Of a stretch of DNA of 64,000 bases, positions 297 to 19,479 are shown piece by piece. The DNA is from Patescibacteria group bacterium (GTDB lineage Bacteria; Patescibacteriota; UBA1384; CAJBMM01). Position 1 is the stretch's first letter, and each line of letters opens with the position of its first letter. The translations under genes and the position numbers were made by a program. Location: contig JBAZWC010000002.1 in assembly GCA_041660565.1 (NCBI GenBank), positions 149,520 to 213,519 of the forward strand, written 5' to 3'. The notes under the pieces were generated by a model. It had not been told where the DNA came from. It made no database searches and saw nothing but the letters and a program-made list of their open reading frames with translations.

Positions 297-1070
297 TTAA
301 TCCACTTTCCGGGCCAGAGTTAACGTGGCAAATGATAGTTTGCGACCAATTAGATTTCGCATAAATAATTTATCAACCGCAAAACTAGCCTTTACCAGCC
401 ATTTCCCGCCAATGTTTAACCATGGGAATACATCCGGATTGTAAAATAAGATATATGACAACAATCCGGGGTACATTTGATCTATAACCTCTAAGCGATG
501 ATCTGACATTAATTTATTTAGATCTTTTAAGTCAAAAGCGCGCTCGGTCTCTTCATCAAAAAAATCATTTTTCTGATATGTTTTGGCCCGAATACGCTTA
601 AACAATCGGTTATTTTGGGTTGGCTCAAGCGCAATAAAATAACCGCCTTTATTTAGCCCATCGCTCAAACTAGCCATCAAGGTCTCAACGTAGTCAGGGA
701 CATGATGCAATCCGCCGATCACAATAATTAAATCGTATTTTTTCGTCGGCTTAAAAGTGGTGGCATCACCGACAAAAATTCGACTGTCAGGATGTTTTTT
801 TTGCGCCGCTTCCACCAAGAACTCACTGATATCAAAACCTTCATAAACCACTTTGGTTTTTAGATGATCTTCAAGGATTTCTTTACCCTCTCCGTACCCA
901 CACAACGGCTCTAACACCAACATCTGATCTTTTTTGATCGATTGATGGCGTTTCAAAAAATGACCCCACATTAGATCTTTTAACAGCAAATGGTTGGGTA
1001 GCTGACGACTAGTAAAATATTTTTCGGATACGCTCTTAAAATGCTTGGCCTGCTGTTCCACTTTCGACAT
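297..1070 (-). CDS. Class I SAM-dependent methyltransferase.
   Basis: 257-aa ORF. Gly-rich motif I 'VLEPLCGYGEG' and motif II-like 'DLIIVIGGLHHV' are present. Confidence 0.55.
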   Translation of the reverse strand: MSKVEQQAKHFKSVSEKYFTSRQLPNHLLLKDLMWGHFLKRHQSIKKDQMLVLEPLCGYGEGKEILEDHLKTKVVYEGFDISEFLVEAAQKKHPDSRIFVGDATTFKPTKKYDLIIVIGGLHHVPDYVETLMASLSDGLNKGGYFIALEPTQNNRLFKRIRAKTYQKNDFFDEETERAFDLKDLNKLMSDHRLEVIDQMYPGLLSYILFYNPDVFPWLNIGGKWLVKASFAVDKLFMRNLIGRKLSFATLTLARKVD

Positions 1071-1075
1071 TTTTA

Positions 1076-1411
1076 TTACCCCTTTCGCCCATCTAAATAA
1101 AATAACACAATGCCGCTTAATACCAACAAGATGGCGACTAGTTTTAACGAACTGAATTTTTCGCCAAGTGCAAAATAACCTACCAGCTGTGTAGCGATAA
1201 TCAAAGAACTGGCGGCAATCGGAAAGGCGGTTGAAAGCGGATTAAGTTTAAGAATAATAATCCAAATCACAAAACCGGCACCGTAGCAAAACAGTCCGAA
1301 TAAAAATGGGAAACCAAAATATCCACCACCCGCATTTTTAATTTGAAATAATCCATACGAGCTCACAATTACATAAAATAGATACAACAAGATGTCTCTG
1401 TATATCACCAA
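1076..1411 (-). CDS. Small four-TM membrane protein, SMR/ArnE-ArnF-like candidate flippase subunit.
   Basis: 111 aa and almost entirely hydrophobic, with four predicted helices. Overlaps the downstream GT2 gene by 7 nt, which is operon-like. Confidence 0.4.
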   Translation of the reverse strand: MVIYRDILLYLFYVIVSSYGLFQIKNAGGGYFGFPFLFGLFCYGAGFVIWIIILKLNPLSTAFPIAASSLIIATQLVGYFALGEKFSSLKLVAILLVLSGIVLFYLDGRKG

Positions 1412-2376
1412 ATCTCCTCATCTTTAATAAATCGTGGGCGCTTTTTGACTTCTTGATATATTTTGCCAATATATTCACCCACCACTCCCAAAGAGAGTAG
1501 CTGCACCCCACCAATAAAGTAGATCGGCAGTACAGTAGATGCCCATCCCGGAACAGTGTGATTCACTACTACCGATTCATACAAAACATATCCACCCATT
1601 ATCAGACTAAGTAGAAAAATTATAAAACCGATTAGTGCCACCACCCGCAGCGGCACCACGCTAAACGAGGTCACCCCGTTTAAGGCAAAGGAAATCATCT
1701 TTCGCATATTGTATTTGGATTTACCCAAAGCGCGATCTGTAACGTCAAAATAGACAATCGCTGTTTCGTACCCAAGGTCGGTAACGATGCCACGCAAAAA
1801 CAGGTTTGTTTCTTGATATTCCGCCAAGGTGTCCAAAGCACGTTTAGAAATTAAGCGATAGTCGGCGTGATTGCGAATCACCCCCGTGCCCATTAATTTC
1901 ATGAATCGATAGAAGAATAACGCCGTCAGCTTTTTGATCATACTGTCGGTTTGGCGATTAGACCTAATGCCATAAACAATATCTGCTCCATCCAGATATT
2001 TCTGCACAAATTGATGGATCGCTTTTTGATCCTGTTGCAAATCGGCATCAATCGAAATTACACAATCAGCTTTATCTTTAACAGACAACAGCCCGGCCAG
2101 CAGTGCGTTCTGATGCCCGACGTTTTTGGCTAACTTTAGTCCTTTAACCCGATCGTTTTGGCGGTTAGTTTGAGTAATAATTTGCCATGTAGAGTCTTTG
2201 CACCCGTCATCAACCAAAAACAAAAAGCTGTCATTGTGAATCGATTTTTGGCATTTTAGTTCATCAACCACCTTTAATAACTTGGCAATGGTGGTAGGAA
2301 GCACCTCTTCTTCGTTAAAGCACGGCACCACAATGGCTAAAATTGGTTGAGCTGTTTTTTGCGATCGAGCCATCAC
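1405..2376 (-). CDS. GT2 polyprenyl-phosphate glycosyltransferase (ArnC/DPM-synthase-like) with C-terminal TM helices.
   Basis: 323 aa. 'IVVPCFNEE' GT2 start, 'VDDGCKDST', 'ISIDADLQQD' (DxD), and two C-terminal hydrophobic helices. Confidence 0.7.
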   Translation of the reverse strand: MMARSQKTAQPILAIVVPCFNEEEVLPTTIAKLLKVVDELKCQKSIHNDSFLFLVDDGCKDSTWQIITQTNRQNDRVKGLKLAKNVGHQNALLAGLLSVKDKADCVISIDADLQQDQKAIHQFVQKYLDGADIVYGIRSNRQTDSMIKKLTALFFYRFMKLMGTGVIRNHADYRLISKRALDTLAEYQETNLFLRGIVTDLGYETAIVYFDVTDRALGKSKYNMRKMISFALNGVTSFSVVPLRVVALIGFIIFLLSLIMGGYVLYESVVVNHTVPGWASTVLPIYFIGGVQLLSLGVVGEYIGKIYQEVKKRPRFIKDEEIW

Positions 2377-2382
2377 TCCACC

Positions 2383-3300
2383 TTATTTTTTAATATAAAC
2401 CGCGGTGACGGTATGCCCATACGGTGCCGTTTTTACCGACATTCCGCGCTTGAAAAACAATGCCAAAACTTCTGCTTTAATTAGCGACAGCCAAAACACA
2501 ATCGAAGTATCAACTACACGCTGTTTACGCCAAAATAATTTGTAAAAACTTTTCATAAAGATCGTCCGCAAATACAGTTTGTACTGGGTTGGTGGCAGGG
2601 TTTCGTGATAAATGTCCTTCATTTCAAGATTAAACAAGGTAGCTATCCCGGCTAGTGCGCCATCCGTCCATCTGGTTTGATGATGAGGCGGTAGGTTTAA
2701 TGCCCCATTAATAATTTCGCCAACATAGCTATCTTCACTTGGCACCGACATTATTAACGTGCCACCTTTTTTCAAACATTTCACCGCAGACTGTAAAAAT
2801 TCGCGCGGATTTTCGATATGCTCCAATACTTGAAAAGAGCAAACCACGTCGTACTTTTCGGCGTTAGACTTAGCGTGAGTGGCGATATCCTCTATCAAGA
2901 TCTGAGGATTTTGCTTGGCCGCCTCTTTATTGATCTCTAACCCAACATATTTTTTAGTCGGAATCAGTTTAGAAAAATACCCGTTGCCGCTACCGATACT
3001 TAACACATGGTCAGATTCAGAAATCAGTTTTTTGGCATAATCATATTCATCTTTATGCTGAGCGTAATACCAAGGAATTGCAGATAATTTGTGATAAAAA
3101 CCACCGTCGCCCACAATCGCCGGAGTATAAAATCTCAGTTGGCATCCCTCGCATTGCATCAGATTAACTCGTGAAATCTCTTTGGGCATTTCGATATTCA
3201 GTTTCAAAGAAATCCGATACAAAAATTTAATACTACGCGTAGAAATCGACTGAACGGACGTTAAATTTTGACTCTGGCAAAGCGGGCAAGTATTTTTCAT
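2383..3300 (-). CDS. SAM-dependent methyltransferase with N-terminal zinc ribbon.
   Basis: 305 aa. 'CPLCQS...CEGCQ' Cys4 ribbon and 'VLSIGSGNGYFS' MTase motif I. Confidence 0.55.
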   Translation of the reverse strand: MKNTCPLCQSQNLTSVQSISTRSIKFLYRISLKLNIEMPKEISRVNLMQCEGCQLRFYTPAIVGDGGFYHKLSAIPWYYAQHKDEYDYAKKLISESDHVLSIGSGNGYFSKLIPTKKYVGLEINKEAAKQNPQILIEDIATHAKSNAEKYDVVCSFQVLEHIENPREFLQSAVKCLKKGGTLIMSVPSEDSYVGEIINGALNLPPHHQTRWTDGALAGIATLFNLEMKDIYHETLPPTQYKLYLRTIFMKSFYKLFWRKQRVVDTSIVFWLSLIKAEVLALFFKRGMSVKTAPYGHTVTAVYIKK

Positions 3301-5147
3301 GGTTTAATCTCGTATAATTGGCTGTTAGGGTTATTTACTATTAATGTAGCGTGACTGATAAAATACTGCTCAAGGGCAATTCCGTTATCGGTATAAGCGC
3401 CCCAATTTTTTAAGTCAATAAACTTTTGGCGCAATCGCACGTCAACCGCCAGTAATTTGATCTTATTTTGGCTGATAAAACCGGCATAATCTGAATCGCT
3501 AGGGACGGCATAGGTGTAACTATTACCGTTTTCTAAATAATACTGAGCGGTGTGATTCCAAATATTCAACGTTACGACACCTTGATAATGATGGTTAATG
3601 TAATCCGTCACCAGTGCAAAATCGCCCAGCTTATAACGCAAATAGGCGCTTTCACCAATGCGCCCGGTGGCGTACGCCGCTTCTTCCACCTTAAATGTAT
3701 CATAAAATAGGGAATTTAGAATACGTCTGGTCGGAACAAAAGGATTTAGACTGTTAATTATCACTACCGCGATCAGAATAACTCCACCGACTTTGTAGGC
3801 AATCGGCTTTAGGTTTGACAAAGTGATGGCAGATAAAATTGATAGTACTACCAACGCCGGAAACAAAAATCGCTGTTGGTGACTAATGACAAAAAACCAC
3901 GCCACAATGTCGACTACGACCAAGGAAGACAATAGCAGTGTAGTGCGACGATTTTTAGGATTGAGAAGGGCAAACGGGGCGAAAAATGATGAAAAGATGA
4001 ATAGATTATAATATCCGGCGGTATTCTGCCAAAATATCTCCGGAATACGTAGAAAATTGGTCAACGTGCGCGGAACTGAGAAGTTTTTGATCGCCGCGTT
4101 TAAGGTATTAATTTCATTATCGGTATATCCCGGGTGAACCAAAATTAGCGGATAGGTGGGATTATGAAATACGATCCAGTTTTTGACGTACCAAAACCCA
4201 CCTACCAGCGCGGCGATTCCGGTAAAATACAACATAGTTTTAAGAAATTTCGCCGACCACTGACGACGAACCGTTAAGAATATTGCTACCACCACCACTG
4301 TGGTCAAAATACCATAAAAAGCCGAGTATTTGATTCCCGCTGCTGCCCCAAAAAAGAATCCGGATAACCAAATATAACGCTCGGATTTTGATTCAAGCCA
4401 CGCTGTCATCGATAAAATAGCCATTACCTCCATCACCGCCTCGCCTGCGTCGATGTAACCACTAGTGGCGTTCTCGATTAGTTGAGGCACAAAAAATATC
4501 AATATAGCAGCAATAAGGCCGGTATTGAGCGAATACCTCTTGTGCAAGAACCCAATAATTGCCACCATCATCGCCAAAAAGTAGCTAAAGTGCAGCAAAT
4601 GCATTAACGATACACCTTTAACCATCATTCCAAACGCAAAGAGGGTCTCCATGGATATTGGCAAATTGCCATAAAATTTCGACCCGCCTAGCGGCAAAAC
4701 GAATCCGGATTGATGAACGATGTAATTTGCTTCGGGTAAATGATAAGCCACCTCATCCCAGGCAGTGGCAGGCGCAAAACAAGCTAAAATGTTTACACCG
4801 GCTAAGATAATCAACGGGATAAGCAGCCATTTTTGTTTCTTAATTTCCGCTAAAATATTCCGGCGGTCTATGCGGCGTTTGCGCAGTTGTTTAATTTCGC
4901 CCAGAGCGACTAGAAACATCGCCACAGCGGCAATTGAAACAGTCCAGCCGTTAAACCACCTTAATATGCCCAAAAACTCAAGTAGGAGTACGAATATGGT
5001 CAAGCCAATAAGATACGAAGACGCGACGACAAACAACTTACTTTCGGGTAAATTAAATACCAACCGCCATACCCTTTGCCCCGCGAGTGTAACCACAGCA
5101 ATAAATAACAAAAAAATTGATAGGGTAATAAGCAAATTTAAGATCAT
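3297..5147 (-). CDS. GT-C fold membrane glycosyltransferase (ArnT/PMT, GT39/GT83-like).
   Basis: 616 aa with more than 10 TM helices in the N-terminal two-thirds and a soluble C-terminal domain. Loop motif 'WDEVAYHLPEA' carries the DE motif of the PMT/ArnT family. Confidence 0.5.
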   Translation of the reverse strand: MILNLLITLSIFLLFIAVVTLAGQRVWRLVFNLPESKLFVVASSYLIGLTIFVLLLEFLGILRWFNGWTVSIAAVAMFLVALGEIKQLRKRRIDRRNILAEIKKQKWLLIPLIILAGVNILACFAPATAWDEVAYHLPEANYIVHQSGFVLPLGGSKFYGNLPISMETLFAFGMMVKGVSLMHLLHFSYFLAMMVAIIGFLHKRYSLNTGLIAAILIFFVPQLIENATSGYIDAGEAVMEVMAILSMTAWLESKSERYIWLSGFFFGAAAGIKYSAFYGILTTVVVVAIFLTVRRQWSAKFLKTMLYFTGIAALVGGFWYVKNWIVFHNPTYPLILVHPGYTDNEINTLNAAIKNFSVPRTLTNFLRIPEIFWQNTAGYYNLFIFSSFFAPFALLNPKNRRTTLLLSSLVVVDIVAWFFVISHQQRFLFPALVVLSILSAITLSNLKPIAYKVGGVILIAVVIINSLNPFVPTRRILNSLFYDTFKVEEAAYATGRIGESAYLRYKLGDFALVTDYINHHYQGVVTLNIWNHTAQYYLENGNSYTYAVPSDSDYAGFISQNKIKLLAVDVRLRQKFIDLKNWGAYTDNGIALEQYFISHATLIVNNPNSQLYEIKP

Positions 5148-7060
5148 TATTTTTTAACCAAGTGATAAAACTGTAAATCTTCATTTTCATAGTATAGTTG
5201 GTATTGGCCAAATTGTTCCATCGATTTAATTTTCTGATTATTCGCTTCATTTTTTTGTTTCAATTTTTCTTGCTTGGCATCAAACGAGCTCAACCCTTTG
5301 GCATCTGCTACCGCAATTTGGGCTAACACCGGATTAGTAGGGTACGGCTGTTTTTCAAAAATCAGAAAAACCTGATCGGTACCATAATTCTTTTTCAAAT
5401 TTTCATCGTTAAGCTTGCCGTAAGCTAAACGCTCAGACATCATTGTAAAATCACGGCAACTATCATTGGCTAAAAGCAAAATATGACTGCTTGGAAAATC
5501 ACGGGCAATTTTGGCACTTTCATCAAACCCGGAAGTATAATATCCGCGATAAAAATGAGCCGGGTAAATAAACGGTGATACCCACAGAGCCACTAATAAG
5601 ATATAAAGCGCAATGCGGAATTTCTGACGGTAGAATTCGTCAAAGGCATAAGTAAGCCCGAGTATTGACAACAGCAGCAGATACCACCCGCTTCGTCCGC
5701 GATACAACATCAATTCAAATACTCCGGTTTGGGTGGAGAAACCCAACACCAAACAGAATATGGAAATGATAAATAGTGGCAGGCGTTTTTTAATTAACGC
5801 ATAAATTAGCAACCCAAGCGACAAAATCATCCATAAATACGCTCCGACTGAGAGAATATTATTCATCGGCCGAATGTTTTTAATTTTGACCCAATCTTTG
5901 CCGGTACGTATTGCGGGGGCAATATATCGTTTATAAAATTTGCTGCTAACAAAACCACTCGGTTTGCTACTTATGCTAGGCGGACTGCTGGTAAAGGTAT
6001 TCGGAGCCTGATTTGACTCCAATACAATCTGGCCGTCGGAAGTGGTAGATGATACCGCAACGTTCGGGAATCCGCCGTATCTGCTTAAAACTGTGGCTTG
6101 CAAATAAACATGACCAAACGATAGCAGTAAGCCGATGGCTGCGATAGCGACAAACGTTACCAAATACTTGAAATAGTCGTGATTCCACCGACGCTTAAAA
6201 ATAAAGCCCAACAGCGTCGCAACCAACAGAGCCGGAATGTATTGAACAAAAAAATACGGCACCGTAATTGCCAGCGCGGCCGAAAACCACAGTCCCAGTG
6301 CCACTGAACGTAAAAAGCCAACTGTTTTGACTGAATAAATTAGATAAAGCAAGGGCACAAATAGCATAAAACTTAGAACTGAGGAGAAAAAGCTAATCGT
6401 TTGCAAAGTAAGTTGGTTATAAATCGGACAAGCCAGCAGCAGAAGCAAAAGTATCATCATTATTTGATGCTTAAAGGTGTCTCTCAGCAATAAATAAACT
6501 GACAGCAGAAAGATCAACCCGATCGCTGGTCCGGCATATCGAAAAATCTCGGTGATGCTAACAAAATGAAATAAAGGAAATAAAAATATATGAAACCCTG
6601 GCGCGTAATACCCGGTACTTAAACGCCCCAAAGTTCTTAAACTATCTAACAACACATAATGGCCAAAAGTATCGTTTGCTCCGGGATACATAAAATTATA
6701 TGCGTCGTAGCAGCGCGAATAAAGCAACGGAATTAGTATCGCAACCACCCACCCCACTTGGCGAGGCTTCCATCGTTTGATCCGAGCAACAATGTCTTTC
6801 ATCTTAATTTCTAAAACAAAAGATGCGTATACGTTTACCACAAACACCAGTATCAACCAAGCCGCCGGGTAATATTTGATGATATTCAAATTATAAAAAA
6901 TGTAGCCAAACAAAATTTGGGCGGAGATAGAGACCGGAACGGTGAATTTTTGCGCCATTTTGGCGTCTTTGAAAATGAGAATTAACGGCAAATAGGCAGT
7001 CACCGAGCACAATCCCAAAACGGCAATGATAATTAATGCTGATAGATAGGTGTTCATCAT
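5147..7060 (-). CDS. Large polytopic membrane protein, probable GT-C-like glycosyltransferase.
   Basis: 637 aa, multi-TM N-terminal region followed by a hydrophilic C-terminal domain. Its start overlaps the stop of the upstream gene. No named motif recognised. Confidence 0.35.
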   Translation of the reverse strand: MMNTYLSALIIIAVLGLCSVTAYLPLILIFKDAKMAQKFTVPVSISAQILFGYIFYNLNIIKYYPAAWLILVFVVNVYASFVLEIKMKDIVARIKRWKPRQVGWVVAILIPLLYSRCYDAYNFMYPGANDTFGHYVLLDSLRTLGRLSTGYYAPGFHIFLFPLFHFVSITEIFRYAGPAIGLIFLLSVYLLLRDTFKHQIMMILLLLLLACPIYNQLTLQTISFFSSVLSFMLFVPLLYLIYSVKTVGFLRSVALGLWFSAALAITVPYFFVQYIPALLVATLLGFIFKRRWNHDYFKYLVTFVAIAAIGLLLSFGHVYLQATVLSRYGGFPNVAVSSTTSDGQIVLESNQAPNTFTSSPPSISSKPSGFVSSKFYKRYIAPAIRTGKDWVKIKNIRPMNNILSVGAYLWMILSLGLLIYALIKKRLPLFIISIFCLVLGFSTQTGVFELMLYRGRSGWYLLLLSILGLTYAFDEFYRQKFRIALYILLVALWVSPFIYPAHFYRGYYTSGFDESAKIARDFPSSHILLLANDSCRDFTMMSERLAYGKLNDENLKKNYGTDQVFLIFEKQPYPTNPVLAQIAVADAKGLSSFDAKQEKLKQKNEANNQKIKSMEQFGQYQLYYENEDLQFYHLVKK

Positions 7061-8265
7061 ATTTGATATGTTTTAATTAATTTTGATACCGAATTTGAGA
7101 GAGAAAAGTGGTCTACAAAGCGAACCGTATTTTTTTGCAATGTCTTTTGCAGATCAGTATTGCTTAATATTTGTGATGCCGCTTCAACGGCTGACCCAAC
7201 GTCATCCACTACCCTACCAACGCCCATCTGTTCGATCTCGGGTAGATTACAATCTTTGGAACAAACTACCGGCACCCCTAACGCCGAAGCTTCAAGAACG
7301 GTCATAGGAATACCCTCCGATCGCGACATCAGCAAAAACAAATCGGAGCTTTTCACTACAGATAGTTTTTCTTTGCCCGACAATAAACCAGTATATATTA
7401 CATTATCTGAGATTTTCAATTCTAAGGCAAGTTTGTCTAAATTGGCTTTTTCACCTTCATCCGGGCCAATAATCAAAAAAACCACGTTCATGCCGGGTTT
7501 TTTTAATTGTTTGATAACCTGAAAAGCAATATCCAGTCCTTTAATGTACTGAATTCGCCCCACGAACGAAATCACTTTTGACTCCGGCGCAAGATCAAAT
7601 TTTTGCACCAAGTTAACTTTTGGCACATCTAAAAATTCTAATGGATCCACTCCATTGGTAACAACGACCACCTTACTTTTGACACTCGGATAAAGTACTG
7701 AAATATCTGATAGTTCTTTGGGTGAAAGCGCAATGACCGCGTTCGCACGATCAACAATGCGATGAAATAACCGAATAAATGTAGTTTTGACCCACGATAG
7801 TTTGGCTTGGCGACTAACCAATGATAACACACCATGAGGTTGGACCACGTATGGCACATCATTTGCAACGCAAACACGACTGGTAATGATGTTTTGGACC
7901 GTAAAATAATCGTGACAGTGCACTACGTCAAAATTTTTAACATTTTTTTTCATCCACCCCGCAAACCCGAACGGTAGATAAAAGTTATGAAATTTCGCCA
8001 AATTGTTGCTGGGATTACGAAAACGAACAATTTGGATGCCGTCGATAGTCTCTGCGGTTTTGTTAATGCGATGAGGTGCGTCTCCGGCGTCAGAGGTAGC
8101 CACCGTTACCTTTATCCCCCGCTTTACCAATTCGCAAGCTTGATTATACGCTACCCGTACCACCCCACCGTAACTCCATGCCGGTGCAAAATACGGAATC
8201 ACCATTAGCACGCTTTTTATCTGACGCGGCTTCGGCCCTAAATCAATCTCGCTCTTAGCCATCAC
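7057..8265 (-). CDS. GT4 (GT-B fold) glycosyltransferase.
   Basis: 402 aa. C-terminal 'EGIPMTVLEASALGVPVV' matches the GT4 'EGFGlpvlEAmacGvPVV' signature. Confidence 0.7.
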   Translation of the reverse strand: MMAKSEIDLGPKPRQIKSVLMVIPYFAPAWSYGGVVRVAYNQACELVKRGIKVTVATSDAGDAPHRINKTAETIDGIQIVRFRNPSNNLAKFHNFYLPFGFAGWMKKNVKNFDVVHCHDYFTVQNIITSRVCVANDVPYVVQPHGVLSLVSRQAKLSWVKTTFIRLFHRIVDRANAVIALSPKELSDISVLYPSVKSKVVVVTNGVDPLEFLDVPKVNLVQKFDLAPESKVISFVGRIQYIKGLDIAFQVIKQLKKPGMNVVFLIIGPDEGEKANLDKLALELKISDNVIYTGLLSGKEKLSVVKSSDLFLLMSRSEGIPMTVLEASALGVPVVCSKDCNLPEIEQMGVGRVVDDVGSAVEAASQILSNTDLQKTLQKNTVRFVDHFSLSNSVSKLIKTYQI

Positions 8266-11254: not shown

Positions 11255-12667
11255 GTGAAAAAAATCTATCTGATTACTCTAACTTTACTACTAGCCACGG
11301 TCTCCGGCTTCTTCTTTGCCCACGATTTGGCCATTGTACCAGCGTTAATTTTGGGCGGGCTGGTTTTTATTTTCTTTTTGACAATTATCATTCCAAATCC
11401 CAAGTTTGGCTTACTGGCCTTAATTTTTGCCCTGCCATTTGAACGTATCCCCTCAATGGCTATCGGAGGCACTACCGTACGTATGAGCCAGATCATTCTG
11501 GGCGGTTTGATTATCACCGCCATTGCCCGACTAATTAAAAACCGGCACGCAAAAATTAAATTTTCTCCCTATTTTTATCCCTACATCCTATTTATCATCT
11601 CGATGCTATTATCATTTCAAAATATGGAGAACCTTGGTCGCGGTGTAATGGTGTTCACATTCATTTTATTCACTTCATTGACCATTTGGATTGTGCCATC
11701 CCTGCTAAAAACTTCAGCCGACTTAGATAAAGTGATTCGAGTATTGTTTATTGTTACAATTCTAATCTCGATATTCGGCTTATATCAATTTGCGGGCGAT
11801 ATGATCGGGCTACCAACATCACTTACCGGCTTACGCGAGCTATATACAAAAATTGTTTTTGGCTATCCACGCGTACAATCAACTGAGCTTGAGCCACTAT
11901 ATTTAGCCAACTTCTTGATCATCCCACTCACCCTTGCCTTTACCTTTGTGGTACGTCGCGCCAACTATTTTTCAGCTTGGATGAACTGGGGGGTGATCGG
12001 GTTTGCCGGGCTAGCGTTTATCTTAACCATCTCTCGTGGTGGATATTTAGGGTTGGCATTTAGCTTCTTACTAGTGATATTGGCCAGCGTGTTTGTCTTT
12101 TTGCGACCAAAATTAATCTTTGGTATTACCACCGGTTTGATCATTTTGAGCGTAGTTGCAGTTGTGGCGCTAAATGTTAGCGATATCGGGCAAAAGACTA
12201 TTGCCATTACTGAAAAGCACTTTTTTGAGGCAACACAGACCGCATCAACTCAATTTCGCTTTAACGCCTATAGCCAAGCGCTTGAAGCATTTAGCCAACA
12301 CCCTATTACCGGCGTCGGTATTGGCAATTTTGGCCCGTGGGTGGCAAACTATCCCGACAAATTGCCTGTTAGCGGTTGGGCAATTGTGAATAATCAGACT
12401 TTAGAATCTTTAGCGGAAACCGGCGTGGTCGGGTTGGCCGCATTGGTGATATTTATTTTGATATTATTGATACGGTCTGTTGCGGCATTTTTCCACGCTA
12501 CCGATCCAAAGCTACGCGCTGTGACGATAGGACTGTTCGCAGCGATGATTGGGGTATTAGTGCAATATCAGTTCTTTTCAACTCTTTATGTGATGCATAT
12601 TTGGGTTCTGACAGCACTCATGATTGCAGTTCAAAACATCATTTTAATTCCGGATAAATCAGAATGA
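11255..12667 (+). CDS. O-antigen ligase (Wzy_C)-like polytopic membrane protein.
   Basis: 470 aa with more than 10 TM helices. 'ISRGGYLGLAFSFLLV' motif and periplasmic loop typical of WaaL/O-antigen-ligase domain proteins. Confidence 0.5.
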   Translation: MKKIYLITLTLLLATVSGFFFAHDLAIVPALILGGLVFIFFLTIIIPNPKFGLLALIFALPFERIPSMAIGGTTVRMSQIILGGLIITAIARLIKNRHAKIKFSPYFYPYILFIISMLLSFQNMENLGRGVMVFTFILFTSLTIWIVPSLLKTSADLDKVIRVLFIVTILISIFGLYQFAGDMIGLPTSLTGLRELYTKIVFGYPRVQSTELEPLYLANFLIIPLTLAFTFVVRRANYFSAWMNWGVIGFAGLAFILTISRGGYLGLAFSFLLVILASVFVFLRPKLIFGITTGLIILSVVAVVALNVSDIGQKTIAITEKHFFEATQTASTQFRFNAYSQALEAFSQHPITGVGIGNFGPWVANYPDKLPVSGWAIVNNQTLESLAETGVVGLAALVIFILILLIRSVAAFFHATDPKLRAVTIGLFAAMIGVLVQYQFFSTLYVMHIWVLTALMIAVQNIILIPDKSE

Positions 12668-13908
12668 AAATTTCAAATTTAGTCGCCATTCTTCCTGGTC
12701 TAACCATCTTATATCTGATCAAGCTGACAATTTTCGGTTTACCTACCAATTGGTGGGAGATTTTGGTTTATCTGTGCGCGTTCGTCTTTCTCTTTATCAA
12801 AAAATCGACTCGACTTAAAAAATCCGAGATTGCATCAATTGCACTTATTACGCTCATAACACTTATCGCCACCTATACTTCGCCCGAGAAACGAGAGGCG
12901 CTGGGCATAATTAAAGGCTGGATTGTCCCGGCAATTTTGCTTTACTGGATGCTTAAAAACGCCTGGGCTGATCCAAAGAATATCACGCTGACTATAAAAG
13001 CGATGGTTTACCAAGGCATTTTAGTGGCGCTAGTTGCCATTTTGCAAACTATCCCCGCTATCTCCAACTGGTGGATTACTCGCGCTCCAGATTTAGCCCA
13101 ATATCTAAACACCGGGCGATACACTAGCATTTTTAACTCGCCCAATTCGGCGGCAATGATTTTAGCCCCAGCGTTAATTTTAGCTCTATATTGTCATTTC
13201 GACCCGGGGAGCTGGCTCGAGCGACCACGTTGGCCTCTGGCTCTACTAGCCGATAGGCTCGGAGAGAGAAATCTTAAGAAAGAATCCCTTCCTCTGCTTG
13301 CATCGCTAGTCATAATTATCGGATTGGTCCTAACCCATTCCCGCGGTGGCATCGTCGCGGCCATAATCGGGATTGCTCTACTAGCGCTCAGTCGATTCGA
13401 TAAAATCAGCCGAGCGTGGGCAGTGGTGATTGCCGCCTTGTCGTTACTTATTTTTAACCCCATTATTTTATCACTGTCGGCCTTAAACGACCCTAACCAC
13501 AGCGACATTCGCATTTTAATTTGGCAAAAAAGCTGGCAGATGGTGAGTCAGCACCCAATTTGGGGTATCGGGCTAGGCCATTTTCATCAAGCTTTCGCCT
13601 CCTTCACCCTACATCAGCCTAACTTTGACGAATTTATTACACCTTATGCTCTTCACCCTCATAACGTGATTTTATACGTTTGGTTGAGCTTCGGGATAAT
13701 TGGGTTAATTGGACTAATTGGGTTGATTGGAGCTTCGGTTCGAGCGTTTTTACGAGACAAATCACCGTTACGCGCGTTAGGTTTTGCCTTGCTAGTAGTG
13801 ATGCTGACTCAGGGTATGGTAGATACTACAATTTTTAAAAACGATCTGATAATTTGGTTTATTATTGCGGTTTTATTAACATTCAGACAGTCGGAAAACA
13901 CAAAATGA
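12664..13908 (+). CDS. O-antigen ligase-like membrane protein, paralog of the previous gene.
   Basis: 414 aa, multi-TM. 'LTHSRGGIVAAIIGIALL' motif. Contains an in-frame 9-bp x 3 tandem repeat (GLIGLIGLIG) and a GC-rich internal patch. Confidence 0.5.
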   Translation: MKISNLVAILPGLTILYLIKLTIFGLPTNWWEILVYLCAFVFLFIKKSTRLKKSEIASIALITLITLIATYTSPEKREALGIIKGWIVPAILLYWMLKNAWADPKNITLTIKAMVYQGILVALVAILQTIPAISNWWITRAPDLAQYLNTGRYTSIFNSPNSAAMILAPALILALYCHFDPGSWLERPRWPLALLADRLGERNLKKESLPLLASLVIIIGLVLTHSRGGIVAAIIGIALLALSRFDKISRAWAVVIAALSLLIFNPIILSLSALNDPNHSDIRILIWQKSWQMVSQHPIWGIGLGHFHQAFASFTLHQPNFDEFITPYALHPHNVILYVWLSFGIIGLIGLIGLIGASVRAFLRDKSPLRALGFALLVVMLTQGMVDTTIFKNDLIIWFIIAVLLTFRQSENTK

Positions 13909-14891
13909 CAACAATCGGAATTGATACATTATTGCTCGGGAGTTCCGAGCTTAATGATTATTTTATCTATGGCTTTTTAAATCAACTCGTCAAAAGTAAC
14001 GCCGAGCTTGTTTTTATTATTTTAATTCCCAAGAAACAAGAAAAACGGTGGACAAGCACCGACAAAATTAAATTCGTACCGATTGACCCAGAAGTTAAGA
14101 TTTTTAAAAAAGAGATTACACGATATAGAAAAGATCCCGCCATCTCACTATGGTTGTGTCTAAACGGCCAGGTTAGGTTTGATGGCCGCAAATCGATCTT
14201 ATTTTTAGATCAGCTTCCCGTAATTAAACCACCCGTAGTCAAACATATTATCGCCACTTCGGTTCAACTTAAACGACAGCTAGTGCAAAAATTTCATCTT
14301 GAAGCAAGCCGGATATCGGTTATCTATCCGGGTGTTAACCCACTCTCAGCTAATCCCGAACCAAATCAAATTACCGTCGTTAGCGGCGGATCGGCAAACG
14401 AACTAATAAATGTGGTTGATATTGTGGCAACGTCGGCACTAAAGCACCGCACCAGACATTTTAATTTATTGGTAAACGAGGCGCGAGTTTTAACCACTCG
14501 TGCCAAAGTAGATGCGCGACGCGTTGGAAACATCTCGGTATTGCCAAATCGACCGGATCAATTAGAATCAACTCTGTCGTACACTCAATTTGTGATTGCC
14601 GATCACCTAAAGCCGGATACGCTACCATTAGCCCTGATTGTTTTGTCGTTCGGTATTCCCACTTTATGCGACAAAAACAGTTTTAATTTAGAAATTTTTG
14701 AGGATGGCGCATTATACTGCAACACCGCAGACACGGTAGAGATGGTGGACCAAATTAGCCATACCATTAAACAGACCGGCTTGCGCCAAATTTTATCCGA
14801 AAAAGCCGCGGAACAAAAAAAACGGTTTACTTGGGATGGCTGTGTCGATGCGGTCATTAATCTTATTCGCAATCAAATTTCTAATGACTAA
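13905..14891 (+). CDS. Hypothetical GT-B-like glycosyltransferase.
   Basis: The ORF track gives 13854; I prefer ATG 13905 (MTTIGIDTLL...) to avoid a 55-nt overlap. No strong motif recognised; placement is by genomic context within the glycosylation cluster. Confidence 0.35.
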   Translation: MTTIGIDTLLLGSSELNDYFIYGFLNQLVKSNAELVFIILIPKKQEKRWTSTDKIKFVPIDPEVKIFKKEITRYRKDPAISLWLCLNGQVRFDGRKSILFLDQLPVIKPPVVKHIIATSVQLKRQLVQKFHLEASRISVIYPGVNPLSANPEPNQITVVSGGSANELINVVDIVATSALKHRTRHFNLLVNEARVLTTRAKVDARRVGNISVLPNRPDQLESTLSYTQFVIADHLKPDTLPLALIVLSFGIPTLCDKNSFNLEIFEDGALYCNTADTVEMVDQISHTIKQTGLRQILSEKAAEQKKRFTWDGCVDAVINLIRNQISND

Positions 14892-14897
14892 TGCCTA

Positions 14898-16379
14898 ATG
14901 TCTAATCAATTTCTAATTTTAAAATTTCTAAGCCGTTTCAATATTCGGATTTCGAATTTCAATCGACATTCGTTATTAGTTATTCGTCATTGTTTGTCGT
15001 GGTTCAAGCAAAATTGGCATTGGGTGGCTCTGACGGCGATTATTGTTCTAGGCGCATTTTTAAGATTTTATTTGCTCTATTCCGGAATGCATTTTGATGT
15101 AGACGAAGCAAATCATGTTAAATCCGTCTACGGTATATGGACAAATCATCAGCTGCTAACCCAGGGGCCACCAACATCCAGCGGTCTGGGATTATATCAC
15201 GGCGCATATTACTATTATTTGTTACTAATCCCAGCTGTCATTGGAGAAGGCAACCCGTTAGCGGTCGTTACTTTCTGCGCTTTGTTGAGTACCTTAGCCG
15301 TATTTTTCATCGGCAGTGCGGTGATGAAACAGTATGGGAAGCTACCGGGGATCTTGGCGGCACTGTTGATGGCGGCGTCATTCGACCTAGTCCAATACGG
15401 ACGATGGATCTGGAATCCAAATTTAATCCCGTTTTTTATGGCGTTATCTCTTTTTGCCCTGGTAAAAACTAGCCCAAAACGCCCCAAATACCTAATACTG
15501 TTCTCGTTCGCACTAAGCAGTATTACTCAACTGCACCTGGGCGGCTTTGTGTTTGTACCAATTTATCTACTATTAATTCCATTTCTGATTAGAGTGGTTA
15601 AGAATAAGCGCATTTGGGCAATCAGTATTCTGGCATTCATTATCCCGTGGACGCCTACCATCTATTACGAAACCACCCACAACTTTGAGATGTTTCGAGG
15701 AATTATCTCCTTGCTTTCGGCGCAATCTAATATATCGTTTTGGCAACATCTAACCACCGGCTATAACTATATGTTATTTATGTTTGACCGAACGCTGCAT
15801 CTACCCGAAATCACCCGCTCGATATTTATTTATTCCGGAATTGCAGCTCTGTTACTACAGCTTAAAAACTGGCGCCATGCCGAATCGGTTTTACTGCCCA
15901 TTTATTTATTAATTTCGCTAATTTTTACCTTTTTGATCGTTTCTTTCTACCCGGATTATTTGTACGTTCATTTGGCCGAACAGTTGTTTGTGATTTATAT
16001 CGTGCTAGTCGTATTTATTTTGCAAATATTATTTATGCATAATGAGACCATTATCGTTTCGCTACTGATTTTGGGATTCTTTTTGCAACAAAATCTGACC
16101 CTGTTTCAAGATAAGATTGTAAACGGCAGCCATCAATACGAAATAATCGATAAAGCGTGCCGATCGTTAAAAGATCAGCATTTAGACAACGTTGAGATGA
16201 TGGTTAATAATCAGAAAAATCCGGTTTATCTAACGTACGTTTGTTTAAACCAATACGGCGTTCACACCGGTAGTAAATTCACCCTCACACTGTCACCGGA
16301 TCAAGCAAAAGGACTGGGGCGCCCGATTGAACAATATATGTTCAATAATAAGGTGATAGACCCGAGCATTAAAAATTAG
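14898..16379 (+). CDS. GT-C fold membrane glycosyltransferase (PMT_2/ArnT-like).
   Basis: 493 aa, multi-TM. First loop contains 'HFDVDEANHV' (DE motif). Confidence 0.45.
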   Translation: MSNQFLILKFLSRFNIRISNFNRHSLLVIRHCLSWFKQNWHWVALTAIIVLGAFLRFYLLYSGMHFDVDEANHVKSVYGIWTNHQLLTQGPPTSSGLGLYHGAYYYYLLLIPAVIGEGNPLAVVTFCALLSTLAVFFIGSAVMKQYGKLPGILAALLMAASFDLVQYGRWIWNPNLIPFFMALSLFALVKTSPKRPKYLILFSFALSSITQLHLGGFVFVPIYLLLIPFLIRVVKNKRIWAISILAFIIPWTPTIYYETTHNFEMFRGIISLLSAQSNISFWQHLTTGYNYMLFMFDRTLHLPEITRSIFIYSGIAALLLQLKNWRHAESVLLPIYLLISLIFTFLIVSFYPDYLYVHLAEQLFVIYIVLVVFILQILFMHNETIIVSLLILGFFLQQNLTLFQDKIVNGSHQYEIIDKACRSLKDQHLDNVEMMVNNQKNPVYLTYVCLNQYGVHTGSKFTLTLSPDQAKGLGRPIEQYMFNNKVIDPSIKN

Positions 16380-16783
16380 TGCGAAAACGTCCAGGTTCGA
16401 TTAGCAAAAAAGTTCCAGAACATCGCCACAGCCGTAGCGGTGGCAAGCCCGTATATTGTGTCCAAATTGAGCATTTGCGGGGAAGTGATAATAAAAAATA
16501 TCGAGTTGTTTATCACTAAGCCAACCAATGCGACCAATAAAAATTTGAGCGCCTCACGCCGAATTTGCGGATTAGTCGACCTAAATGTCCAACTTCGATT
16601 CATCGCATAGCTTGAAGATGCCGAGAATACGAACGACATCGCTTTAGCAATTTGAGCGCCAACCTGACCGGCTGGCCTGAGTGACAAGTGAAAAACATAA
16701 AAAAGCGCCCAATCTAGGGCGGTATTAATTGCCCCAACTATCGCAAATTTAACAAATTGTCTAACGGCTGGCTTGTCTCTCAT
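16376..16783 (-). CDS. GtrA-family small membrane protein.
   Basis: 135 aa. 'FVKFAIVGAINTALDWALFYV' GtrA-like N-terminal helix and four TM helices. Convergent and overlapping with the upstream gene end. Confidence 0.6.
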   Translation of the reverse strand: MRDKPAVRQFVKFAIVGAINTALDWALFYVFHLSLRPAGQVGAQIAKAMSFVFSASSSYAMNRSWTFRSTNPQIRREALKFLLVALVGLVINNSIFFIITSPQMLNLDTIYGLATATAVAMFWNFFANRTWTFSH

Positions 16784-16831: not shown

Positions 16832-17554
16832 ATGGAAGAAAAGAAACCTCAATACAAGACATTATCAATCGTCATTCCGGCATACAACGAAGCCGCTACC
16901 ATTGAGCAACTGATTGATCGGGTCAAAAAAGCCAAATGTTTCGGGATGCAAAAACAGATTATTGTAGTTAACGATTGTTCTAAAGACAAGACCAAGGACG
17001 TGGTGGCTAAAATCGCCGACATCAAATTAATCAATCAAAAAGTCAACGGCGGTAAGGGAAAAGCGTTAAAAACAGGTTTTGAAGCCGCGGACGGCGACAT
17101 TATTATGATTCAAGACGCCGATTTGGAATACAATCCAGATGAATACGAAATTTTACTTGATCCCATTCTGCATGGCACCGCAGATGTAGTTTATGGTTCG
17201 CGTTTTATGGGTGATCACCCTCACCGCGTCCTTTACTATTGGCACAGCGTTGGTAACAGTTTTATTACCTGGCTTTCCAATATGATGACCAACTTAAACA
17301 TCTCCGATATGGAAACCTGCTATAAAGTGTTTAAAAAAGATGTATTAAAACAAATTGTACCTAAATTGACCTCTCCACGTTTTGGGTTTGAGCCCGAGGT
17401 AACCGCCCGTATTGCCCACCTAAAACCGCGAGTTCAAATTTATGAGGTTGGTATTTCTTATGCGGGCCGCACCTACGAAGAAGGTAAAAAAATCAACTGG
17501 AAAGACGGCTTCGAAGCGATCTATTCGATTATCAAATTTAATCTGTTTCGATAG
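16832..17554 (+). CDS. GT2 polyprenyl-phosphate sugar transferase (soluble, DPM1-like).
   Basis: 240 aa. 'LSIVIPAYNEA', 'VVNDCSKDKT', 'IQDADLEY'. Confidence 0.7.
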   Translation: MEEKKPQYKTLSIVIPAYNEAATIEQLIDRVKKAKCFGMQKQIIVVNDCSKDKTKDVVAKIADIKLINQKVNGGKGKALKTGFEAADGDIIMIQDADLEYNPDEYEILLDPILHGTADVVYGSRFMGDHPHRVLYYWHSVGNSFITWLSNMMTNLNISDMETCYKVFKKDVLKQIVPKLTSPRFGFEPEVTARIAHLKPRVQIYEVGISYAGRTYEEGKKINWKDGFEAIYSIIKFNLFR

Positions 17555-17568
17555 CCAGGCTAATAAAT

Positions 17569-19479
17569 ATGACAGGCGACCAATTTCTGATAATTTCTGG
17601 CTATTTTTTGATCGTATTTATCGCCGCATTTTGTTTGGGCACTTTGGCTGCTCAATTTATCCGATATGTTCTCAAGCGATTCAAAATCAACCTAAACTCA
17701 GACGATTCACCCACTTTTTACGGCGTGAATTTAATGGTCGGAATGGGGCTGCTCAGTAATTTATGGTTGGTTTTGGGGTTGTTGGGCTGGTTCACTCGGC
17801 CGGTAATTTTATCTAGCCTAATTTTAGTCGTATTTTTGTTTATTGGCATTTACTGGAAACGAATTCCCAGGCGCTTCACCATCAAACCAGTCGATCTTCG
17901 TCATCTTTCATACATTCACCTAGTCCTAATTGGCATTGCAACTTACTTTTTACTAACGTTTTATGCTGCCGCCATGCTACCTCCGCACTTATGGGACGAG
18001 CTCTCTTATCACTTGCCTGAAGCCGGTAACATCGTGCAACATCATCGCATATTCCCTCATTTTGAGGCGTATCTGTTTTTCGGCAACATCCCCAAATTAA
18101 TGGAGGTTTTATACGCCGGCGCAATTTCGTTAAGCGGCACTACGGCGGTTGGAGCGTTGGCGCATTTGATGCATTTCACCGTGATTTTAGGATTGTTAAT
18201 GTTGGTGTACCAATGGCTTCGCCATAGATTTGGCACCAGAACGGCGGCAATTGGCTTGATAATGCTCGTTCTGTGCGATCAACTGATGCAAAATGGGATT
18301 ATCGGATATATCGACGCCGCAACCGCCGCATTTGAAGTGGCGGCTGTAATTATGGCAATTGAGTGGATAATTAGCAAAAACACTTACGCACTATCACTAT
18401 CGATGCTGTTAATTGGTTTTGGATTAGCATCTAAATACTCCGCGTCTCCTTCCTTTTTGGCTGTTTTGGCATTGTTAGCTGGAGGACTATTTAGATTTAA
18501 ACTACCCCAAGTACAAATTAAAAAACTGGCAGTCTGGTTAATATTATTGTTCGTATTTGCGTGCGGTTATTGGTATATCAAAAACATCTATTTTTATGGC
18601 AATCCGTTTTATCCGTTATATTTTGGCCACCGCTTTATTAGTGATTCGGAATACCTCGAGATACTGGCTTCGGTGCGACAAATAAGCGACCGCAGCTTAT
18701 CCGGAATTATCGAGATTGTGACTAATTTTCTGACCCCGGCCAACTTTAACGTATTTTGGGCCATTATTTTATTTCCAATTGCCTTATTGGTGCGCAAATC
18801 TCGATCAATTACTGCCATTTTAGTAGTGTACGCAGCCAGCTATTTTGCATACTGGTATTTCTTTGCCTCACGCCAAGATCGATTTATGATCGCCGCAATC
18901 GTGGCCGCCACCATTTTGATTGCGATATTACTTGGCTCAATTCGTTATCGATGGTCAATTCCGATAGTGGCAGTTTTTCTGATAATGTCGTATTTCTTAA
19001 TCAATCACCACGCCAATGGAGTGGTAGAATACCGCAAAGCGTTAAAAGAAAAGCGAAACCAAGTTGGTGTACAATACGTTCTTGGCCAGGTCTCAACCAG
19101 ACAGTATATGAGTAGCTTATTTGGCTGCGCGTATCTCACTTTTGATGATATGAAAATTAATGGCTGGAACGGCAACGTAATTGATAACTGGACGGTCTGG
19201 CACGACCCAAACGTCGGTTTCTTCGCCACCAACATCGGGTTAGTTCAATTTAATGCCCCATTAGGCACTACCGACGCTCAATTAAATGAAATGGTGCACA
19301 AGCAAAGTCTCAAATTTTTGTACTTTAACCAAGGGACCAAAGAGCGATTTGCTCAAGAGACAAACACGGGAATGGTGGAATACCGCCAAGGCCGAGCAGA
19401 AGTGGAAGCTAGATTGCTGCAAAACGCCACACTGATTAGTCAGCAAGGGCCGTGCATGCTATACAAATTAAATTATTGA
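17569..19479 (+). CDS. GT-C fold membrane glycosyltransferase, paralog of 3297..5147.
   Basis: 636 aa, multi-TM. Loop motif 'WDELSYHLPEA' is near-identical to 'WDEVAYHLPEA' in 3297..5147. Confidence 0.5.
   Translation: MTGDQFLIISGYFLIVFIAAFCLGTLAAQFIRYVLKRFKINLNSDDSPTFYGVNLMVGMGLLSNLWLVLGLLGWFTRPVILSSLILVVFLFIGIYWKRIPRRFTIKPVDLRHLSYIHLVLIGIATYFLLTFYAAAMLPPHLWDELSYHLPEAGNIVQHHRIFPHFEAYLFFGNIPKLMEVLYAGAISLSGTTAVGALAHLMHFTVILGLLMLVYQWLRHRFGTRTAAIGLIMLVLCDQLMQNGIIGYIDAATAAFEVAAVIMAIEWIISKNTYALSLSMLLIGFGLASKYSASPSFLAVLALLAGGLFRFKLPQVQIKKLAVWLILLFVFACGYWYIKNIYFYGNPFYPLYFGHRFISDSEYLEILASVRQISDRSLSGIIEIVTNFLTPANFNVFWAIILFPIALLVRKSRSITAILVVYAASYFAYWYFFASRQDRFMIAAIVAATILIAILLGSIRYRWSIPIVAVFLIMSYFLINHHANGVVEYRKALKEKRNQVGVQYVLGQVSTRQYMSSLFGCAYLTFDDMKINGWNGNVIDNWTVWHDPNVGFFATNIGLVQFNAPLGTTDAQLNEMVHKQSLKFLYFNQGTKERFAQETNTGMVEYRQGRAEVEARLLQNATLISQQGPCMLYKLNY

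Follow-up and report, generated by a model that had tools for sequence, protein, structure and literature searches.

A Densely Packed Gene Island of a Patescibacteria Bacterium with Predicted Multi-Component Transmembrane Glycosylation Modules and Four GT-C Transferases of Three Families

The three-component transmembrane glycosylation systems GtrA/GtrB/GtrV (Shigella and Salmonella), CsbB/GtcA/YfhO, and Lactococcus Csd each combine a glycosyltransferase family 2 (GT2) synthase of polyprenyl-phosphate sugars, a small membrane protein of the GtrA or SMR type, and a glycosyltransferase of fold class C (GT-C) with an outward-facing acidic motif; their classical role is the extracytoplasmic decoration of lipoteichoic acid, wall teichoic acid, wall polysaccharides, and O-antigen (PMC8035078, PMC11127046). 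Here, we describe a gene island of approximately 19 kb (297–19479) with the same adjacent components, located in a 64,000-nucleotide stretch of a Patescibacteria group bacterium genome (GenBank assembly GCA_041660565.1, contig JBAZWC010000002.1, positions 149,520–213,519; the whole 64-kb stretch is called the window below). In contrast to the three-component systems, the island holds three synthases and four, possibly six, GT-C enzymes, which belong to families without characterized members, one of them without a Pfam or NCBIfam model. The original prediction for this locus, made from the sequence letters, had been a candidate protein O-glycosylation system, a reading that our analysis neither refutes nor favors. 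We consider it somewhat better than an even chance (roughly 0.55) that the island comprises no fewer than three multi-component transmembrane glycosylation modules for the synthesis or decoration of a glycan on the cell surface, the acceptor most likely being a wall- or lipid-anchored glycopolymer or lipoglycan and not specifically a protein.

The island is an operon-packed, real gene cluster. The open reading frame (ORF) listing gives 18 closely packed genes, and junction analysis places ten of these in a single minus-strand operon running from 10058 down to 297 and the others in two plus-strand units (10331–16379 and 16832–20560), between which the GtrA gene is the lone minus-strand gene. 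Junction spacing is −7 to +6 nt within 297–9068, with longer apparent overlaps at two junctions further upstream, and −4 nt within 11255–14891 on the plus strand; distances of this kind indicate operons and not assembly by chance. G+C content is uniform throughout, at 0.41–0.43. A promoter scan returned 57 hits compared with 48.6 ± 8.2 in shuffled sequence, which is no better than chance, terminators were only mildly enriched, and the scan was not used. The genes lie where the original prediction had placed them, every gene class that it named was recovered in Pfam and NCBIfam scans, and the motifs WDEVAYHLPEA, WDELSYHLPEA, and DVDEANH were found in 3297–5147 (minus strand), 17569–19479 (plus strand), and 14898–16379 (plus strand), respectively. 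The inventory grew by a GT2 that is not of the synthase type (8262–9068), a GT4 (7057–8265), and a weak GT-B-like protein (13854–14891).

The predicted end of the island at 297 was not borne out, because the operon runs on beyond the left window edge. A membrane-protein gene opens at approximately 296 on the minus strand and leaves the window there; its product begins with MQQLGTFYQKHHYIVAFAVILVFWALFYAITGTYKSGFHLTDDHEII…, a helix and then a DD motif (HLTDDHEI). In a 13-kb Logan contig with an identical operon, this gene encodes 524 amino acids, and beyond it lies a convergent gene for a 541-amino-acid protein with a precomputed DUF8201 (PF26626) match (L021:9895–11469 and L021:11473–13098, respectively). 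The 524-amino-acid protein shows a weak alignment to GT-C family C and the 541-amino-acid protein to family A (hhalign probability 53%–57%), in both cases with the acidic motifs in register, and on these alignments the island probably encodes six GT-C-like proteins and extends over more than 22 kb. On the right, the gene for a signal-anchored glycoside-hydrolase-like protein (19523–20560) starts 43 nt downstream of the second family A gene and is possibly part of the island.

The original count of four GT-C enzymes in the window proved correct, based on family matches, two AlphaFold models, and paralogy. They fall into three sequence families, A (two copies, A1 and A2), B, and C, that are mutually unrelated: hhalign gave a probability of 0.6% for B against A and 73% over 104 columns for C against A, neither of which is a usable relationship, so the three cannot be treated as one family. 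A1 and A2 are true paralogs, as had been proposed, with 26% identity over 550 amino acids (E = 1e-41). The AlphaFold models of A2 (predicted local distance difference test [pLDDT] 88, predicted template modeling score [pTM] 0.90) and of the family B protein (pLDDT 89.3, pTM 0.89) matched only GT-C enzymes in Foldseek, with probabilities of approximately 1.0 and TM-scores of 0.4–0.59, and nothing else scored; the matches were ALG12, ArnT, AglB, ALG9, STT3, AftA, EmbA/B/C, and Pmt1 for A2 and STT3, AftA, DPY19, and ArnT for B. Both modeled proteins are predicted to adopt the GT-C fold. A1 is assigned as a putative GT-C through its paralogy with A2, and the family C protein as a candidate through its homologs, many of which carry the PMT_2 domain (PF13231), and through a weak match to the AglB profile (E = 3.7e-4). 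The family C gene probably starts at 15024 rather than at the called position, giving a protein of 451 amino acids. The family B protein has no Pfam or NCBIfam match, and none of 35 homologs has a precomputed Pfam domain. Sequence searches of PDB chains with the GT-C proteins and family profiles gave no meaningful match except the weak one to AglB for family C.

The acidic residues, whose loss on alignment had been named as grounds for refuting the original prediction, are kept in all four GT-Cs on the family alignments. Family A has an invariant D143 and a near-invariant E144 within the motif P138-P139-x3-D-E-x2-Y-H-x-P, and H148, P150, D249, E256, and K289-Y290 are also invariant. Family B keeps D119 and D130 throughout, with H134 near-invariant, and the invariant residue of family C is D69, in the FDxD motif. 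The motif directly follows a hydrophobic helix in all four proteins, the loop before this helix is rich in lysine and arginine (K/R; 6–9 residues), and the motif loop itself is K/R-poor and acidic; following the positive-inside rule, this distribution places the motif loops outside the cell. Each of the four carries a conserved acidic residue in the predicted first extracytoplasmic loop, as is typical of GT-C_A enzymes.

Two established family assignments were tried for these enzymes and rejected. None of the four matched PF02366, PMT_4TMC, or MIR at E ≤ 0.01, which excludes membership of PMT (GT39), and no Pgf-type GT-C model of NCBIfam matched them. ArnT (GT83) and lipid A modification were also rejected: there was no ArnT NCBIfam match, the PMT_2 matches are below threshold, and CPR (Candidate Phyla Radiation) bacteria, to our knowledge, lack lipid A. 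The ArnC/ArnE-ArnF/ArnT pathway resembles the island in its membrane-anchored GT2, its SMR-type small protein, and a GT-C onto which the model superposes (ArnT, 5ezm/5f15), but the window lacks ArnA, ArnB, and ArnD, the genes for 4-amino-4-deoxy-L-arabinose, and all scores are far under the equivalog cutoffs.

The three GT2 proteins that had been proposed as polyprenyl-phosphate-sugar synthases were confirmed as belonging to that type by family and PDB matches. Residues 8–319 of the GtrB-like protein align to residues 23–327 of Synechocystis GtrB sll0501 (5ekp) over the full length (E = 3.6e-64), ArnC matches at E = 2e-33, and hydrophobic helices follow the GT2 domain at approximately 231–300, all features of the GtrB/ArnC type. 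Its best NCBIfam match is PgfS (E = 2.6e-66), at 224 bits compared with a cutoff of 500 bits. The GacI/PpgS-like GT2 matches PpgS with 99 bits (E = 2.1e-28) against a cutoff of 370, hence it is no equivalog, and AglJ at E = 1e-24; dolichyl-phosphate hexose transferases are also among its nearest relatives. The DPM1-like GT2 has its closest matches in AglJ (E = 4e-33) and the dolichyl-phosphate mannose synthase of P. furiosus (5mlz; E = 1.8e-15). GalU, encoded outside the island, is a plausible source of UDP-glucose for the GtrB-type synthase.

A small membrane protein beside each synthase had been predicted to be flippase-like. This holds for two of the three as candidates. The gene for the SMR-like protein shares 7 nt with the GtrB-like gene, and the protein gives weak matches to EamA (E = 2.8e-5; 24.8 bits, gathering score 28.2), ArnF (E = 2.5e-5; 24.7 bits, cutoff 99), and ArnE (E = 5.7e-5; 23.3 bits, cutoff 92); its size, helices, and position suit the ArnE/F type. 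Residues 12–133 of the GtrA protein match PF04138 with 85.9 bits (gathering score 26.1), which places it in the GtrA family. The third, in contrast, is a DUF2304 protein (62.5 bits, gathering score 25.5), a type that activates synthases rather than acting as a flippase, and its gene overlaps that of the GacI/PpgS-like GT2. By gene adjacency, these two form a pair like GacI/GacJ of Streptococcus pyogenes (GacI/GacJ/GacK/GacL) or PpgS/Rv3632 of M. tuberculosis (PpgS [Rv3631]/Rv3632/Rv3779), in which a soluble GT2 likewise lies next to a DUF2304 activator, and an activating function may be proposed by analogy. In those pathways, the synthases GacI and PpgS are bound and stimulated by the DUF2304 proteins GacJ and Rv3632, and a GT-C then modifies wall polysaccharide (10.1101/180810). 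The window pair differs in that its PpgS score is below the equivalog cutoff and in that it heads a conserved module of five genes, GT2, DUF2304, GT2, GT4, and GT-C B. We know of no characterized system with this arrangement.

A family A profile scan of GTDB representative genomes returned 12 loci, 11 of them with substantial matches, and homolog look-ups gave further loci; the window proteins were compared by BLAST with the first 15 (L001–L015). Family A is scattered over Patescibacteria, Actinobacteria (Gaiellaceae and others), and metagenome-assembled genomes (MAGs) of Gammaproteobacteria. Directly upstream of the family A gene in eight related loci, drawn from all three of these groups, lies a DPM1-like GT2 that is 39%–45% identical to the window protein, and in most of the eight a methyltransferase of about 195 amino acids (38%–52% identical between loci) is encoded between or beside the two. 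This triad (L001:8725–11869, L004:3043–6283, L005:8739–11848, L008:921–4011, and L003:7150–9641) was found in Patescibacteria, a Pseudomonadales MAG, and unclassified MAGs, and it hints that a lipid-linked sugar may be methylated before export; the closest window relative of its methyltransferase is MT2 (27% identity). In each of the three other loci examined (L016, L017, and L018), the family B gene has a GT4 gene immediately upstream that it overlaps by 4 nt, which makes four of four with the window included, and L017 repeats the whole order GT2, DUF2304, GT2, GT4, GT-C B. The GT2-DUF2304 pair also occurs in L001, L011, L016, and L017, and a GT2-GtrA fusion gene in divergent orientation adjoins the gene for a family C relative (60% identical). 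That these gene pairs are conserved argues strongly for a lipid-phosphate sugar synthase as the partner of each GT-C. Family B is small: of 1.84 billion representative clusters, 373 match at E ≤ 1e-3 and 78 match at E ≤ 1e-30, and its named members are all from the CPR.

Module combinations differ among the related loci. Together with the lack of relationship between the GT-C families, the patchy distribution of family A, and the three transcription directions within the island, this could reflect a recombination hotspot for surface variation, a mosaic of independent modules in which each synthase and GT-C would have its own acceptor, polymer or protein, and no single pathway would exist. Such a mosaic is conceivable, but we are doubtful of it since one overlapping ten-gene operon joins two GT-C families and two synthases, the five-gene order is kept in L017, and the G+C content does not vary along the island.

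The family assignments, models, outward acidic motifs, and conserved synteny support well the predicted logic of a lipid-linked sugar donor made in the cytoplasm and used outside. On the cytoplasmic face, the GtrB-like, GacI/PpgS-like (with its DUF2304 partner), and DPM1-like synthases would transfer sugar from a nucleotide sugar to polyprenyl (undecaprenyl) phosphate. The SMR-like and GtrA proteins may flip the resulting lipid-linked sugars across the membrane, and on its outer side the four GT-Cs would pass the sugar to an external acceptor by means of the acidic residue in the first outward loop. The soluble GT4, GT2, and GT-B-like proteins and two membrane proteins with a Wzy_C domain would most likely assemble the acceptor glycan and then polymerize or ligate it, and two methyltransferases may add O-methyl groups on the cytoplasmic side. 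In this scheme, we infer the sugars, the flippase roles, the pairing of synthases with GT-Cs, and the acceptor.

The two O-antigen-ligase-like (Wzy_C) proteins and the two S-adenosylmethionine (SAM) methyltransferases of the original prediction were confirmed by Pfam (Table 1). Both membrane proteins belong to the Wzy_C (PF04932) superfamily, with 10–11 hydrophobic helices, and could each be a ligase, a polymerase, or an O-oligosaccharyltransferase; the subtype matches of the second are weak (RfaL, E = 4e-6; repeat-unit polymerase, E = 1.5e-5; WaaL 7tpg, E = 0.0075). The first methyltransferase gene, MT1, is separated from its upstream gene by 5 nt, and MT2 overlaps GT-C A1 by 4 nt and is translationally coupled to it. 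The GT4 gene has 4-nt overlaps with both neighbors, including GT-C family B. The soluble GT2 encoded next to it has no hydrophobic helix, and orthologs with 38%–44% identity were found in L001, L003, and L006. The GT-B-like gene likely starts at the ATG at 13905. The 281-amino-acid protein that opens the plus-strand operon had no Pfam or NCBIfam match even at E ≤ 1.

Table 1. Positions, strands, and assignments of the genes of the island and of two genes beyond its predicted right end
Gene	Position	Strand	Assignment	Matches and features
MT1	297..1070	-	SAM-dependent methyltransferase; last operon gene wholly inside the window	Methyltransf_23/25/12/11, E 6e-10 to 1.5e-7
SMR-like	1076..1411	-	Small four-helix SMR/EamA-type protein, candidate flippase (ArnE/F-like)	Weak matches
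GtrB-like	1405..2376	-	GtrB/ArnC-type membrane-anchored GT2, predicted polyprenyl-phosphate hexose synthase	GtrB, ArnC, PgfS
MT2	2383..3300	-	SAM methyltransferase	Methyltransf_23, E 1.7e-17; N-terminal Cys-pair zinc-ribbon-like segment
GT-C A1	3297..5147	-	Putative GT-C, family A copy 1	Motif WDEVAYHLPEA; PMT_2, E 4e-4; LIC_10190 family, E 7e-8
GT-C B	5147..7060	-	Predicted GT-C, family B	Fold match; follows GT4 gene
GT4	7057..8265	-	GT4 (GT-B fold) cytoplasmic glycosyltransferase	Glycos_transf_1, E 1.3e-31; Glyco_transf_4, E 1e-23
Soluble GT2	8262..9068	-	Soluble GT2 (TuaG/WcaA-like), not of the polyprenyl-phosphate-sugar synthase type	Glycos_transf_2, E 7e-28; TuaG, E 1.8e-17
DUF2304	9037..9402	-	Small membrane protein, predicted GacJ/Rv3632-type activator	DUF2304, E 5.2e-17
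GacI/PpgS-like	9348..10058	-	GT2, predicted synthase of polyprenyl-phosphate (N-acetyl)hexosamine or hexose; opens the minus-strand operon	
281-aa protein	10331..11176	+	Soluble protein; first gene of the plus-strand operon	No hydrophobic helix
Wzy_C 1	11255..12667	+	Wzy_C membrane protein	Wzy_C, E 1.4e-18, 67.5 bits (gathering 31.7); about 11 hydrophobic helices
Wzy_C 2	12664..13908	+	Wzy_C membrane protein	Wzy_C, E 8.5e-22, 78 bits (gathering 31.7)
GT-B-like	13854..14891	+	Weak GT-B/GT4-like protein	Glyco_transf_4, E 1.8e-4 over 35 residues; MshA C-terminus, E 7e-4
GT-C C	14898..16379	+	Candidate GT-C, family C, PMT_2/ArnT-like	Motif FDVDEANH; PMT_2, E 9.4e-4
GtrA	16376..16783	-	Small membrane protein of the GtrA family; candidate flippase	GtrA_DPMS_TM, E 3e-24
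DPM1-like	16832..17554	+	DPM1/AglJ-like soluble GT2, predicted polyprenyl-phosphate sugar synthase	Glycos_transf_2, E 3e-34
GT-C A2	17569..19479	+	Predicted GT-C, family A copy 2	Motif WDELSYHLPEA; PMT_2, E 9e-5; identical to NCBI entry WC773_03405
GH-like	19523..20560	+	Signal-anchored glycoside-hydrolase-like protein	Glyco_hydro_cc, E 1.5e-4, just over gathering score; one N-terminal hydrophobic helix
GalU	26485..27354	-	UTP-glucose-1-phosphate uridylyltransferase; outside the island, 7 kb further to the right	TIGR01099, E 1.2e-92

The nature of the acceptor was approached through the genes found near relatives of the GT-Cs. Several are polysaccharide genes: Wzm/Wzt with Wzt_C in L001 and L018, Wzx-type Polysacc_synt in L016 and L017, Capsule_synth (KpsC/S-like) and NeuB in L016 and L018, and dTDP-sugar modification genes in L003. 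A match of the cluster to a defined teichoic-acid or capsule pathway had been named as grounds for abandoning the protein hypothesis. The window matches no such pathway, and TagB/F-type glycerophosphotransferases, LCP ligases, KpsC/S, Wzm/Wzt, and Wzx were not found among the scanned window ORFs.

Protein O-glycosylation has described counterparts in the streptococcal pairs of GtrB with a GT-C (GtrB/PgtC2 and Pgf), which O-glycosylate S/T-rich disordered regions (PMC11092751). The streptococcal GtrB + PgtC2 and Pgf (PgfS/PgfM1/PgfE/PgfM2) systems and actinobacterial Ppm1/Pmt share with the island a GtrB/PgfS-type GT2 that provides a polyprenyl-phosphate sugar for a GT-C and S/T-rich extracytoplasmic proteins encoded nearby. 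In the window, one or more of the GT-Cs could place single sugars on Ser/Thr of secreted or membrane proteins such as either of two S/T-rich ones, a T4SS_pilin protein of 380 amino acids (S + T 22.9%) or a giant protein of 1933 amino acids (18.9%; mean 12.8%); the former, described at first as pilin-like, is S/T-rich as stated, but its C-terminal domain is T4SS_pilin (PF18895) and not that of a type IV pilin. The PilB gene adjoins the island, and PgfS is the best NCBIfam match of the GtrB-like synthase. Alternatively, the Wzy_C proteins could be O-oligosaccharyltransferases of the PglL/PilO type, which are known members of the Wzy_C family. Even so, we think a protein acceptor rather unlikely. 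The island differs from the streptococcal and actinobacterial systems in that its GT-Cs have no PMT, PMT_4TMC, MIR, or Pgf-type match and in that the related loci are polysaccharide-oriented; the PgfS score is far under its cutoff, and GtrB fits equally well; and 9–10 kb separate the Wzy_C genes from the pilin-like genes. S/T richness by itself is weak evidence. Co-conservation of the cluster with the pilin-like and giant proteins, which the original prediction had put forward as a check, was not seen: BLAST found no homolog of either in the 15 related loci, which is weak negative evidence because these proteins diverge quickly.

The many GT-Cs of the island, its GT4 encoded before a GT-C, its SMR-type candidate flippase, and the AftA/Emb fold matches are also reminiscent of mycobacterial assembly of phosphatidylinositol mannosides (PIM), lipomannan (LM), lipoarabinomannan (LAM), and arabinogalactan (PimA/B, Ppm1, PimE, MptA/B, Emb/Aft, and the SMR flippase Rv3789). 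A lipoglycan could be assembled in this style, as a sub-case of the preferred reading, if GT4 (and GT2) made a small glycolipid primer at the inner face that was flipped and then extended and branched processively by the GT-Cs, in the manner in which PIM/LM/LAM are made by PimA/PimB, PimE, MptA/B, and Emb/Aft; the GT-Cs would then be polymerases and not enzymes that decorate side chains. The translational coupling of GT4 and GT-C B in four of four loci, the concentration of three lipid-phosphate-sugar synthases and between four and six GT-C-like genes in one island, the presence of AftA and EmbA/B/C among the Foldseek matches, a Mannosyl_trans2 GT-C in L001, and matches of some family A members to GT87 (PimE-type; E = 5e-6) are consistent with this scheme. 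The GT87 matches are marginal, however, and none was obtained for the window proteins themselves; there is no evidence of processivity, genes for lipid-anchor synthesis were not identified, and the two Wzy_C proteins point instead to donors linked to undecaprenyl diphosphate. The island also differs from the mycobacterial systems in possessing Wzy_C proteins and in lacking any sequence-level relationship or Emb/AftD-like carbohydrate-binding modules. Mycobacterium-style assembly is therefore unlikely in our view. A further idea, equally unlikely, is that family B is a lineage-restricted and as yet unannotated GT-C family of Patescibacteria, obligately tied to GT4 in the five-gene module, that together with the other GT-Cs would assemble a membrane-anchored glycan wholly outside the cell from polyprenyl-phosphate sugars, including O-methylated ones supplied by the GT2–methyltransferase–GT-C triad. 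If true, this would amount to mycobacterium-like envelope building in ultrasmall episymbionts, possibly forming the host-contact surface.

A wall- or lipid-anchored glycan acceptor remains our preferred interpretation, and several points weigh against it. A priming phosphoglycosyltransferase, a Wzx/ABC exporter, an LCP ligase, or a teichoic-acid enzyme was not found in the window, so that the supposed polymer pathway is incomplete here; the missing priming and export genes count in favor of both a protein acceptor and lipoglycan assembly. The acceptor is deduced indirectly, and its polymer-type setting was observed in other genomes and not in this one. The PMT_2 (PF13231) scores of the window proteins of families A and C are 20–23 bits, below the gathering score of 26.1, and the catalytic role proposed for the acidic residues follows from where they lie and from their invariance rather than from superposing single residues on ArnT or PglB. 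A flippase role of SMR, GtrA, and similar proteins is unproven even in model systems (PMC11127046).

Beyond the island, the window contains several other gene groups. A single PilB/T2SSE ATPase gene (20648–22252) separates the island from a minus-strand run (22357–27354) that includes GalU, a solute-binding protein (25019–26440), and T4SS_pilin-domain proteins (23850–24992 and 22695–23105), with small ORFs between them. Another minus-strand run (49111–60149) encodes the 1933-amino-acid protein, which has no Pfam domain, a 454-amino-acid protein of unknown function, a PEGA/beta-propeller protein (56265–57518), and a VirB4/TraG-type P-loop ATPase (58356–60149); it looks like a type IV secretion-like surface apparatus of the CPR. 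The genes dnaA, dnaN, and recF follow one another in this order at 43980–47869, and the cumulative GC skew has its minimum at approximately 44 kb, which indicates that the window probably spans the replication origin. G+C content rises to 0.54 at 32001–34000, compared with approximately 0.43 around it; this segment covers a gene (32294–34069) for a 591-amino-acid alpha/beta-hydrolase (LCAT/PGAP1-like, DUF7379) that may have been acquired horizontally. The region 34217–39785 encodes a protein with a Phd/YefM-like antitoxin domain, an HNH endonuclease (35266–35820), a histidine phosphatase, three consecutive 191-amino-acid ORFs (a methyltransferase, an NT5C nucleotidase, and one unknown), and a patatin-like phospholipase (37190–37972) that is of interest for a lipid-scavenging lifestyle. 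The proteins encoded at 19523–20560 and 30992–32206 are both signal-anchored with marginal Glyco_hydro_cc matches; paralogy between them was considered and was not detectable (BLASTP E = 0.1).

The machinery is of a known kind, a transmembrane glycosylation system with multiple components, and since the mechanism is already established, the value of the island lies in annotation and in the choice of targets rather than in a conceptual advance. Three features appear to be undescribed so far: family B, which is small, found in the CPR, devoid of a domain model, and coupled to GT4; the GT2–methyltransferase–GT-C triad that crosses phyla; and the unusually dense occurrence of GT-C genes in a genome of reduced size. 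Full-text literature searches found no description of such a glycosylation system in Patescibacteria/CPR and nothing on LIC_10190 or DUF8201, and no description of CPR surface glycans was found in the literature covered. Attachment to other microbes is the way of life of cultivated CPR/Patescibacteria (PMC12206443), which makes surface chemistry a likely factor in contact with the host. The GT4/GT-C B pair, the GT2–methyltransferase–GT-C triad, and the GacI/GacJ-like pair are gene sets that could be taken up for glycan chemistry and genetics in cultivable relatives. A reduced CPR genome here spends about 20 kb or more on extracytoplasmic glycosylation, with several of the GT-Cs listed as "hypothetical" in standard annotation.

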